Made by a program: the position numbers
IMG/VR virus record: IMGVR_UViG_2703719366_000012
From: a virus
Lineage: Duplodnaviria; Heunggongvirae; Uroviricota; Caudoviricetes
Direction: 5' to 3' (one strand)
Length of the DNA: 11,222 bases
In this document: piece by piece, positions 6,001-9,000 of the stretch
Numbering within the stretch: position 1 is the first letter of the stretch
Layout of the letters: each line of letters opens with the position of its first letter

Positions 6001-9000
6001 AGGGTGCCCCAGGCGATCGCCGCTGCGACAAAATCATCCACATCTTTCACCAGCCGATCCCTCCGTTCGACGATCTCACGGTAATATTCAGAGCTGTGAC
6101 TGCGCATACGGGCCACCAGCAGAGGCGGCATTGCCTTTTCGATCGCCGGTAACAGAGCCTGCATTTTTTCAACTGCATCAGGGGTGTCTTTCTCTATCCA
6201 GCGGAAAATTTTCTGGGTATTGCGAGCCAGGGCTTCCGGATGGCTGTCGTCGTACAGTTCAGGAAACGTCATACCCAACTCAAAATAAGCCTGGGTTATT
6301 CCAGCTGCCGGAACTTTTTCGCCATCAGGACGCGCCCAGGCATTCATCGCCATGCGGATGTGTTCATGCTTGATTTTCATGAATCCCCCCTTGGTTAGAA
6401 GGCGGATTATGATCAGAATCGGGAATGACAACCGTCGGTATGTGTAACTCATATTTGAGCGCCCCGGCAGTGACTGCCTGAATTAGCAACGCCCATTTCC
6501 ACGGAACGTCTTCCCCCCACATGCTGACTGTGGTTTTTGACGTTCCTAGAGCGGCGGCTGTTTTAACAACTCCGCCAAAATAGCCTAATACTTCTGATTT
6601 TTTCATGAGTCGCTCCATAAAACTGAACGCCAAAAGTTTAATAATCAAAACCAAAGAAAGTCAAGAAACAAAACCATCTGTGTTTTAAAATCAAAACATG
6701 AACAAGCAAACAATATCTGAACGCATAACCCAACGTATGCATGCGCTAAACTTGAAAGGCAAAGACCTTGTCAATGCCACTGGCGCATCAAAAGGCTCCG
6801 TAAGTCAATGGATGAACGGTGGAGGAGCGCCGTCCTCGCGTTACATAAGTTCACTGGCAAAGATATTGAAAGTAAACGAAAATTGGCTTCTTAATGGAGG
6901 AGAGTTAAATACAGGTGATTCGCTTGATCTATCTTTACCGCCGATAAAAACGGTTCCGCTACTATCACTTCAGCAGGCAGCAAGCTGGAGTGATTATATG
7001 AAAAATTCCTCAATAACCTCTTGTGTGCAGCTTGTCGGAGAAATCCCGGCCAATACCTTTGCTGTTGTTCTAGAGAGTGACAGTATGTCGACATCTGGTG
7101 GTGGAGTTTCCATCCCAAATGGTTCAACAGTTTTTGTTGATCCCGATCGAATCGTACAACCAGGAAATATTGTCCTTGCCTTACCCAAAGGGACCACAAC
7201 GCCTGTCATTCGCAAACTGGAGATAGAAGGGCCGGATATTCTTTTAGTCCCCACGAATCCTCGCTACCCTTCAATTATGCTGGATGATCTATCTTGCATA
7301 TTGGGAGTATGCTTTAAAATTCAACAAGATATTTAACCAACCTCATCTATTTGATTAACTGTATGCCATCGTAGTGATGGCGTAACAGCTGCCTGCTTAA
7401 AATGTTTTGATAAAAAAACATTGACCTTAAATGTTCGTTTTTCTAAACTTCATTCATTCCCTCACCCCGCCCCACAGAATGCAGGGCAATACTTCGAGTT
7501 ACCAGGCAGTGGTCAGGGGTTAAGTAGCCAGCCCGAGGCGTAAGAACATGACGGCAGGGTTCAACTTTAATAACTATGCAGCAGGTTTTTGTTCCGCTAC
7601 CCCGGCGTTAAGGGGAAATGAGGTCAACATGGATACGCTCAATCTTGGCAACAACGAATCTCTGGTATGTGGCGTGTTCCCCAACCAGGACGGTACGTTC
7701 ACCGCGATGACGTATACCAAAAGCAAAACGTTTAAAACTGAAGCTGGCGCGCGTCGCTGGTTAGCCAGAAACACTGACTGATGAGGTTGACGATGGAATT
7801 TAAAGATTTACCTCCTTCAATCCAGGAGATTGCAGCACACACACTTCGTCATCGTCTGAACGAACTTGAATTGGAATCGGTAACGAAAAAAGACACTGAT
7901 AATATGGCTCGTAATGTGCGCGATGCGTTTACCGGATTGTATTTCTGTGCGTCTATAAATAAACACGACTCAGAGAGTGTGGCAAATAAAATTGCAGAAA
8001 CGACAGCGCAAAACATCAATACGAAACCAACGGAAGAAGAAATTGATCAGTTTGCTCATGATGCTGGTTTAAAAAACAAGAAAGAAAAATCGCCATATGC
8101 GGGGAACATGTTTGTTTATGACAATCTCATCAGAATTCGTGGCGAAATTCCGGCGGAATACCTGGCAAGAGTCCATCAGGCATTGCTTAAAAATTTGGAA
8201 ACAGAATTATTTGATGGCAACACTAACGGTTTCTTCATGGTATCAGGCCTTGAGAAAGACTGGGATGCAGAAAAACGCTGGAATGTTGCTACATGGTTAT
8301 TCAGTAACAGAGCCGCTGCACTGGAAGCTTCGGCATGTATTTGCGGCCTGTTCTTAACAGACCACAAATATAATCTGGATGTGTACAGTTATATTTACGC
8401 TGAACACGGTCCACTCTGGATTGACTGGTAATTATAAGGAAACACCAGCAGGGCCGCGGCGACCAACAGAACGATTAAAATCAATAATGCCATTATAAAG
8501 GACATTATTTAATTTATCGTCGAATGCTGATTCTGTGAGCCTCAACTCTGAATGAGTTTTTAATAACCCTGATTGCCTGAGTTGATTTACCAGGCATTCA
8601 ATCTGTTTTTCAATAAGCGGATTTCTTTTTTTGTTTGGCATTTTATCCTCCATTGAGGTTCTGGGTTAAAAATGGAGACCAACACGCTGTCACGTGTGGT
8701 CGTGCGCCGGACACGGATAAGAATCCGGTACTGACAGTTTACTGAAAGGATATTTCCCTGAAAAGTCAGTGCATAACGCGAAAGCGTACGGCGAAGCTCT
8801 TTCCCTTAGAAGGCTTGTCGTTAGATTTCTTCGAACGTGCGCTTCCGGTTGTGGCACTCCGCGAAATGGCGCGGCGGTAAGTATGGCGGGGTTATTCCTT
8901 CCCCATTGAGGACACCGGGTTGTCAGGTTGACCATACGCTTAAGTGACAACCCCGCTGCAACGCCCTCTGTTATCAATTTTCTGGTGACGTTTGGCGGTA

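Follow-up and report, generated by a model that had tools for sequence, protein, structure and literature searches.

Two genes that face each other from opposite strands of a prophage operon, and whose stop codons touch, raise the questions (i) whether both are real, (ii) whether they belong together, and (iii) what such a pair might do for the prophage that carries it. The case considered here is a plus-strand gene for a protein of 212 amino acids (aa) and a minus-strand gene for a protein of 69 aa, located in an 11,222-nt stretch of caudovirus DNA (IMG/VR record IMGVR_UViG_2703719366_000012; the whole stretch is referred to as the window) that belongs to a lambdoid prophage of the Qin/dicB type. 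Positions 7400-9100 of the window are identical to prophages in Escherichia coli O157:H7, O121 and other Shiga toxin-producing E. coli, and in O157:H7 Sakai the pair corresponds to ECs_2211 and ECs_2212 of prophage Sp11. What is new, as judged from sequence comparison, is that these genes occupy a modular, polymorphic, two-sided socket, and that the C-terminal domain of the large protein and the small protein show a conserved pairing across prophage backbones.

A modular gene pair in a polymorphic socket

Both open reading frames (ORFs), their lengths and the abutting stop codons (TAA at 8429-8431 and TTA at 8432-8434, reading TAATTA) are as described in an earlier note on this DNA. The minus-strand ORF spans 8432-8653 and would encode 73 aa if read from its first ATG; this longer reading is unnecessary, given that the start at 8641 (69 aa) is supported by a GGAGG located 5 nt upstream (8651-8647) and is also the start chosen by the NCBI Prokaryotic Genome Annotation Pipeline (PGAP) and found in PHROG 4274. 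In every complete locus with this gene pair among the IMG/VR contigs, the two genes are separated by exactly 0 nt. Across diverged alleles, the ratio of nonsynonymous to synonymous substitution rates (dN/dS) is 0.28-0.32 for the 212-aa gene, 0.13-0.17 for the part encoding its C-terminal domain, and 0.21-0.27 for the 69-aa gene, and the 69-aa ORF is retained down to 41-55% identity in Salmonella. These values indicate that both ORFs are real protein-coding genes under purifying selection, and the convergent arrangement is not due to chance.

Codons 4-6 of the 69-aa gene contain a run of seven adenines (8624-8630), which is shortened to six in eight IMG/VR draft contigs, cutting the ORF to 17 aa. 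Phase variation at this run was considered and rejected, since the complete genomes are nearly all exact in this region (536 of 579, with one alone in the 95-99% band); the shortened runs are probably homopolymer sequencing errors.

Searches of Pfam, NCBIfam and PADLOC gave no significant match for either protein, and the only PHROG matches (2151 for the large protein, 4274 for the small one) have no function assigned in that database, which bears out the earlier note in finding no recognisable domain in the pair. The profile-based and structure-based searches that it had proposed returned no domain family and no informative fold for either protein's model, nor any specific fold match for that of the 69-aa protein; the sole match in a search of PDB sequence profiles, Noc (E = 0.06), was taken as noise. 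A literature search found no published mention of Ybl81, of either WP accession, or of ECs2211/ECs2212.

The large protein comprises a constant helical N-module (residues 1-56; 7793-7960), a linker (residues ~57-100) and a conserved alpha/beta C-domain (residues 101-212; 8093-8431). Its full-length homologues, which are 65-100% identical, were found only in Escherichia and Salmonella; residues 1-65 are mosaic among alleles, and residues 101-212 are strongly conserved. The protein is acidic, with an isoelectric point (pI) of 5.2 and a maximal 19-residue hydropathy of 1.16. The 69-aa protein is basic (pI 9.7; maximal 19-residue hydropathy 0.22) and is modelled as a soluble helical hairpin (predicted local distance difference test score, pLDDT, 82.6), in which an SGLLK turn and a disordered tail, GRRGPAGVxL, are conserved. 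No conserved catalytic motif and no membrane segment was found in either protein.

In an exhaustive profile search over 1.84 billion representatives, the N-module (approximately the first 55 residues, MEFKDLPxxIQxIAAxxL...RNVRxAFxGLY) was found fused to more than 20 unrelated C-termini, or free-standing in proteins of 50-90 aa. The same search returned just two distant relatives of the C-domain, P0180 (286 aa) and P0190 (220 aa), both of which have another N-terminus; an XRE helix-turn-helix (HTH) is inserted in P0180, and C182 and H205 of the 212-aa protein are retained in neither. P0174 and P0185, two giant repeat proteins picked up by the N-module profile, were treated as compositional or repeat artefacts.

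Sampling IMG/VR with the constant sequence that contains the small gene's ribosome-binding site (RBS), CCTCAATGGAGGATAAAAT, and looking up other proteins with the N-module yielded at least eight classes of locus, each having a distinct C-terminus and a distinct convergent small gene. Named by the lengths of their large and small products in aa, these include 212/69 (the type found in the window), 112-119/64 (the O104:H4 type), 179-186/80 (zinc-ribbon-like), 201/63, 129/99, 125/102, 52-68/61 and 124/72 (L098), as well as a 121/66 pair in E. ruysiae and a 50/60 pair in Xenorhabdus. Wherever both genes are readable, the association of large and small gene is perfect class by class. The constant ends of the socket are the N-module and the small gene's ribosome-binding region, the latter being identical before at least five unrelated small genes (117 IMG/VR loci), with more classes having variant flanks. 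Since the pairs vary class by class between constant ends, the variable block begins where the N-module ends and reaches the small gene's first codons.

A protein scan of genome contigs gave no further matches, and a DNA-pattern scan of the same contigs returned mostly chance matches, together with loci in E. albertii, E. ruysiae and Xenorhabdus. In PADLOC-DB 2.0, the other cassette classes gave only HTH-type or insignificant matches. The 102-aa partner of the 125-aa class (L096 2789-3097, minus strand) has a sub-threshold match to the Pfam GhoS antitoxin family (E = 0.015, covering positions 1-76 of the 94-position model).

By its position in these loci, the cassette is regularly placed just upstream of leaders that contain small RNAs (sRNAs). 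Elsewhere the socket precedes IsrK and C4 antisense RNAs with an antirepressor or 'Derepression' gene, rather than DicF/dicB (L094 3688-3876; L087 5783-5870).

Linkage across backbones and the empty site in K-12

Occurrence was counted over 5426 complete E. coli genomes. For the C-domain DNA there are 738 occurrences, spread over 591 genomes, and for the small gene 744, spread over 597; the 212/69 class is carried by about 11% of the genomes, O157:H7 Sakai, O121, O111, O26 and O103 among them. The genes for P0180 and P0190 lie in Salmonella prophages having the order integrase, HTH repressor(s), Cox-like gene, then P0180 or P0190, and each of the two is trailed by a convergent, overlapping gene for a protein of 64 or 69 aa that is 46-54% identical to the 69-aa protein. 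The Salmonella C-domains are 33-36% identical to that of the window over the full ~99 residues (39% in the best BLASTP segment), and the N-terminus is replaced, with or without an XRE HTH. As the pairing persists at these levels of identity, with both the N-terminus and the backbone exchanged, the C-domain and the small protein have stayed together and are still convergent.

In one Salmonella prophage of the Cox type (L092 5100-5160), a leader like the E. coli pre-dicF leader and a DicF-like hairpin with a T-run (GTTTTGGCGGTAAAGGAAGACCGCATTTTTT) are found downstream of the pair; the hairpin scores below the Rfam DicF gathering score.

The operon of the K-12 Qin prophage has the order ydfA-ydfB-ydfC-dicF-dicB-ydfD, and in the literature on dicBF its promoter-proximal genes are treated as unknown (PMC5069750). 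Aligned to K-12 Qin, the window is homologous through ydfA, after which homology breaks off and resumes at ~8700 in the pre-dicF leader. K-12 Qin has a clean empty site, in which ydfC is joined straight to the leader, with ~790 bp fewer than in locus L093. The earlier note had left open whether ydfB and ydfC are remnants of the larger gene or the block is an inserted accessory cassette, and had suggested comparing homologous prophages for its presence or absence. This comparison, in which the block is absent from K-12 Qin, shows it to be inserted. Descent of ydfB and ydfC from the 212-aa gene is ruled out, as neither protein of the pair resembles YdfB or YdfC in sequence (best blastp E = 7.8) and as three loci (L004, L093 and L096) carry both genes intact between ydfA and a full cassette; an easy misreading, in which the two genes would be decayed pieces of the 212-aa gene, is thereby corrected. 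On these alignments, the 212/69 pair is a discrete accessory cassette. The K-12 and window operons are near-identical in ydfA, the long untranslated leader, DicF, dicB and ydfD; they differ in that K-12 lacks the whole cassette, the window lacks ydfB and ydfC, and a CI/S24-type repressor replaces DicA in the window.

Putative control of the operon and of the opposite strand

On the plus strand of the window (Table 1), the order is repressor, promoter-like site, ydfA-like gene, 212-aa ORF, untranslated region, DicF, dicB, ydfD-like gene and a truncated recE-like gene, which makes the 212-aa gene the second of its operon, as had been proposed. The replication side, with cro-like, YdaT-like, O/P-like and other genes, is on the minus strand. 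The 69-aa gene is embedded opposite the operon, between the 212-aa gene and dicF/dicB.

Table 1. Features around the convergent gene pair, with their positions in the window
Feature	Position	Strand	Basis or remarks
Two operator-like palindromes, TGTTTTAAAATCAAAACA	6635-6653 and 6681-6699		cI/cro intergenic, 6635..6699; repeat family D1, inverted repeats I1 and I2
CI/LexA-type repressor, 212 aa, HTH and S24 peptidase	6698..7336	+	Pfam Peptidase_S24 (8e-13), HTH_3
Third operator-like palindrome	7402-7421		Touches the -35 of the promoter-like site below
Sigma-70-like promoter site, TTGACC-17-TAAACT	7421-7449	+	
ydfA-like DUF1391 gene	7629..7781	+	First operon gene; Pfam DUF1391 (1e-29), PGAP; DNA near-identical to K-12 ydfA
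212-aa gene	7793..8431	+	WP_000394548.1; Sakai ECs_2211; PHROG 2151; RBS GAGG 7 nt upstream
69-aa gene	8432..8641	-	WP_001133037.1; Sakai ECs_2212; PHROG 4274
Constant ribosome-binding region, CCTCAATGGAGGATAAAAT(G)	8642..8660	-	Precedes at least five unrelated small genes
Hairpin, GACCACACG-TGACAG-CGTGTTGGTC	8677..8701		Sequence as read on the minus strand; just upstream of the small gene's RBS
Weak promoter-like site, TTTTCA-17-TAAACT	8736..8764	-	8/12 matches; 95 nt upstream of the small gene's ATG
Long untranslated region	8702-8979	+	Near-identity to K-12 Qin
DicF sRNA with terminator	8980-9031	+	Near-identity to K-12 Qin; Rfam DicF, 75 bits
dicB	9206-9394	+	Pfam DicB (1e-36)
ydfD-like DUF1482 gene	9391-9579	+	Pfam DUF1482 (3e-15)

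The palindrome TGTTTT-N6-AAAACA is present in two copies in the cI/cro intergenic region and in a third at the operon promoter, and TTGACC-17-TAAACT would serve the ydfA-...-dicF-dicB operon as its PL-equivalent promoter. Because the operator-like motif is common to the cI/cro region and the operon promoter, as expected of OR- and OL-type operators, control of the pair-bearing operon by CI, which the earlier note had assumed, can reasonably be inferred. With a CI-type operator at the operon promoter, no expression of the large gene would be expected in the lysogen.

The window encodes a full-length CI/S24 repressor (212 aa), of which only a 339-bp C-terminal piece is annotated in TR01 and in Sakai Sp11 (L001 8599-8937; L219 593-931); the window's copy of the prophage may still be SOS-inducible, and these reference copies perhaps are not.

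In a scan of both strands over 7300-9250, the DicF terminator (9014-9029) was the first terminator-like site to be predicted, and none lies between the two genes, in agreement with the earlier description. Transcription of dicF and dicB must therefore cross the small gene antisense, and any small-gene transcript extends antisense into the 212-aa gene.

The hairpin ahead of the small gene keeps its stem through differing sequences across loci (e.g., GACCACACG/CGTGTGGTC, CTCCAC/GTGGAG and TTCCCGA/TCGGGAA; L003, L089, L093, L096, L085 and L092), and its loop reads TGACAG in some loci and CTGTCA, the reverse complement, in others, giving the impression of an element that flips. N-module alleles showed no consistent association with the alleles of this hairpin, a correlation that was sought as a sign that the N-module recognises the constant region. 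The promoter-like site TTTTCA-17-TAAACT falls below the threshold of a standard scan; it is conserved in E. coli loci, and its region is conserved in K-12 as well, which is without the small gene. A 9/12 promoter-like site at 9141-9114, antisense between dicF and dicB, lies far upstream of the small gene and would transcribe antisense to dicF. A further candidate, TTAACC-18-TAAAAT (8669-8640), was rejected as a promoter of the small gene because its -10 overlaps the ATG.

Elsewhere in the window, the dicF-dicB spacer (9029-9238, plus strand) matches Rfam STnc100 at 34.7 bits, which is below the gathering score of 47. At 1446-1770 on the minus strand lies a hok/sok type I toxin-antitoxin locus, where an Rfam sok match (113 bits; 1596-1770) overlaps a Hok/Gef ORF; it corresponds to hokD of K-12 Qin. 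The RecE-like ORF (414 aa; 9672-10916, plus strand) matches only positions 1-402 of the 883 of PHROG 607 and appears truncated, its counterpart being labelled incomplete in the TR01 annotation and a pseudogene in that of Sakai.

Proposed function and competing explanations

We tentatively propose, as a reading that we still place short of probable, that the lysogen uses the 69-aa protein as an effector of exclusion or defence, and that the 212-aa protein, produced upon induction, neutralises it as its cognate partner. The 69-aa helical-hairpin protein would be made in the lysogen from the strand opposite the repressed operon, and the acidic 212-aa protein would be made only once CI has been inactivated. 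Its C-terminal alpha/beta domain would then bind and neutralise the 69-aa protein, sparing the prophage from its own effector, and transcription from the early promoter, running antisense through the small gene, would lower the expression of that gene and provide a second off-switch. We infer the expression of the small gene in the lysogen, the interaction of the two proteins, its polarity and the anti-phage activity. This proposal is favoured because the layout matches that of two described systems, TERi and Tab/anti-Tab, and because sieB of the Rac prophage occupies the same position; furthermore, the complementary charges of the two proteins, together with the absence of membrane segments and catalytic motifs, suit a binder and its target. 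By analogy, and conditional on experiments, the pair would be of the prophage effector/self-immunity type with its partners on opposite strands. The exclusion or anti-defence role suggested in the earlier note, and the tuning of expression by convergent transcription, gain indirect support from the polymorphic socket and from these analogues.

In the TERi system of Listeria prophage phi10403S (TerI with anti-TerI1 and anti-TerI2), a defence gene of 65 aa is embedded in the early lytic module and read from the other strand, unrelated small genes alternate between prophages downstream of a conserved promoter, and self-immunity is encoded in the early operon (bioRxiv 10.1101/2025.02.27.640495). 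In the Tab/anti-Tab system of Pseudomonas phage JBD26, a minus-strand defence gene with its own promoter always occurs together with a plus-strand counter-defence gene in the lytic operon; in JBD26 it is the late (terminase) operon that is involved, and the target is the tape-measure protein (PMC10884400). In both systems, the small gene provides constitutive defence and the operon gene provides self-immunity made on induction (bioRxiv 10.1101/2025.02.27.640495; PMC10884400). The window shares with TERi a small gene (69 aa, against 65 aa in TERi) opposite an early lytic operon, a partner in that operon and, as at the TERi hotspot, a constant expression region before alternating unrelated small genes. 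However, the host belongs to another phylum, there is no evident sequence relationship, and the candidate neutraliser is modular (a constant N-module plus a swappable C-domain) and lies tail-to-tail with the small gene. Tab/anti-Tab and the window both have a small minus-strand gene and, in a repressor-controlled lytic operon on the plus strand, its linked partner, although the pair lies in the early-left operon, whereas Tab lies in the late operon. Partner linkage of the Tab and TERi type is seen in the operator at the operon promoter, in the 738 places of the C-domain DNA against 744 of the small gene, and in the linkage that is found in Salmonella as well.

The earlier note had pointed out that this is the position of superinfection-exclusion genes such as sieB in lambda and its relatives, and the Rac prophage agrees with it: in K-12 Rac, sieB is convergent with the DUF1391 gene ydaF, which it follows and whose 3' end it overlaps, and the series ydaF, sieB, the sRNA kilS and the division inhibitor kilR (L099 4906-5003, 5172-5812) parallels ydfA, the cassette, dicF and dicB. 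SieB is an exclusion function expressed in the lysogen, and the phage-encoded escape function, Esc, is an internal product of sieB. The resemblance to sieB of Rac, and to sieB/esc of P22 and lambda, lies in the convergent placement right after the DUF1391 gene of a repressor-controlled left operon; it does not extend to the sequences, which show no similarity (best blastp E > 3), or to the proteins, as SieB has 162 aa and hydrophobic segments whereas the 69-aa protein is soluble, and Esc is not the product of a separate convergent gene.

Several observations weigh against the pair being an effector and its neutraliser. PADLOC 2.0 contains no defence family homologous to either protein, the structure models gave no informative fold matches, and no convincing promoter was found for the small gene, the sole nearby candidate being the 8/12 match TTTTCA-17-TAAACT. 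The 124-aa class in E. albertii is without a partner and abuts the leader directly, and in some classes a ~50-aa N-module alone faces the small gene; the C-domain is therefore not a universal neutraliser, and the proposal does not account for the constant N-module. The flank on the small-gene side is homologous in the Salmonella loci too, so that the contexts are not wholly independent, and the co-variation seen in E. coli could be that of a mere recombination unit bounded by two conserved flanks.

Taken further, the last point would leave no functional link at all between the two genes, which would be independent morons co-travelling between recombination anchors (the N-module codons and the dicF leader). 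The right-hand flank is indeed homologous in all contexts, Salmonella included, and some N-module genes are partnerless. However, the pairing and the convergent overlap persist despite divergence and despite replacement of the N-terminus and the backbone, both genes are under purifying selection, and the zero-spacing junction is invariant, and we consider such an unlinked pair unlikely, if the likeliest of the three competing explanations.

Pore-forming colicin operons, which consist of an SOS-controlled toxin gene, a convergent immunity gene and a lysis gene, suggest instead that the polarity is reversed, with the 212-aa protein as a host-directed effector or toxin, like DicF, DicB and YdfD, and the 69-aa protein as a constitutive antidote absorbing leaky expression. 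The layout is that of these operons in having an SOS-type inducible promoter, then a large modular gene and a small convergent one, and, downstream, lysis or killing genes that need antisense read-through. However, the immunity proteins of pore-forming colicins sit in the membrane, and colicins are exported and have known domains, whereas the small protein here is soluble and no known toxin domain is present in the large one. A constant N-module with variable C-termini and cognate small genes also recalls polymorphic toxin/immunity loci; the partner of the 125-aa class has the weak GhoS-antitoxin-like match (E = 0.015) given above; the small gene is essentially never disrupted in complete genomes (536 of 579 exact around the A7 run); and the dicBF operon is rich in host-toxic functions (PMC5069750). 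The C-domain, on the other hand, has neither a toxin or enzyme domain nor conserved catalytic residues (C182 and H205 are not retained in P0180 and P0190), and the large protein has no secretion signal, so that strain competition, the usual driver of toxin/immunity diversification, is missing. Furthermore, in viable Stx2a phages (e.g., PA2), a 147-aa protein homologous to the 129-aa class (36% identity) is accompanied by no more than a remnant of the 99-aa partner, which supports a neutraliser, since a neutraliser can stand alone and an antidote-dependent toxin cannot. With no Pfam domain, a soluble small protein and these partnerless homologues of the large gene, the pair does not have the marks of a toxin-antitoxin or colicin-type system, and we rank the reversed polarity, likewise unlikely, behind the absence of a link.

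The least probable of the explanations, in our estimate, is a regulatory pair that tunes lysis/lysogeny or dicF-dicB, in which the large protein would be an early regulator, its C-domain serving for oligomerisation or as a sensor, and the small protein an anti-factor or a nucleic-acid-binding regulator of the DicF leader. The HTH fusion in P0180 and an ACT/ArgR-like fold would fit such roles; the fold matches are non-specific, however, the 212-aa protein itself has no DNA-binding domain, and an empty site in K-12 along with at least eight unrelated alleles is ill-suited to core regulation.

The proposal of a lysogen-expressed effector with an induction-expressed neutraliser can be extended from the window to the socket as a whole. 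Accordingly broader, and in our view rather doubtful, is the claim that the early-left operon of Qin/Sp11-type prophages holds a previously undescribed hypervariable two-sided socket with at least eight cognate pairs, each consisting of a lysogen-expressed anti-phage effector and an induction-expressed neutralising domain, that the N-module is the shared adaptor of all neutralisers, and that E. coli and Salmonella have in this socket a major polymorphic locus of defence and self-immunity. With other alleles, the socket has a wider distribution than the 212/69 class. Whatever the function of the pair, the small gene lies antisense within the DicF/DicB transcript and is hence relevant to the expression of a toxic operon. 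If defence and self-immunity are indeed what it serves, the pair would add a very small effector family and a modular neutraliser to the opposite-strand systems of prophages, and could help to explain phage susceptibility in pathogenic E. coli and interference among the lambdoid prophages of enterohaemorrhagic E. coli.

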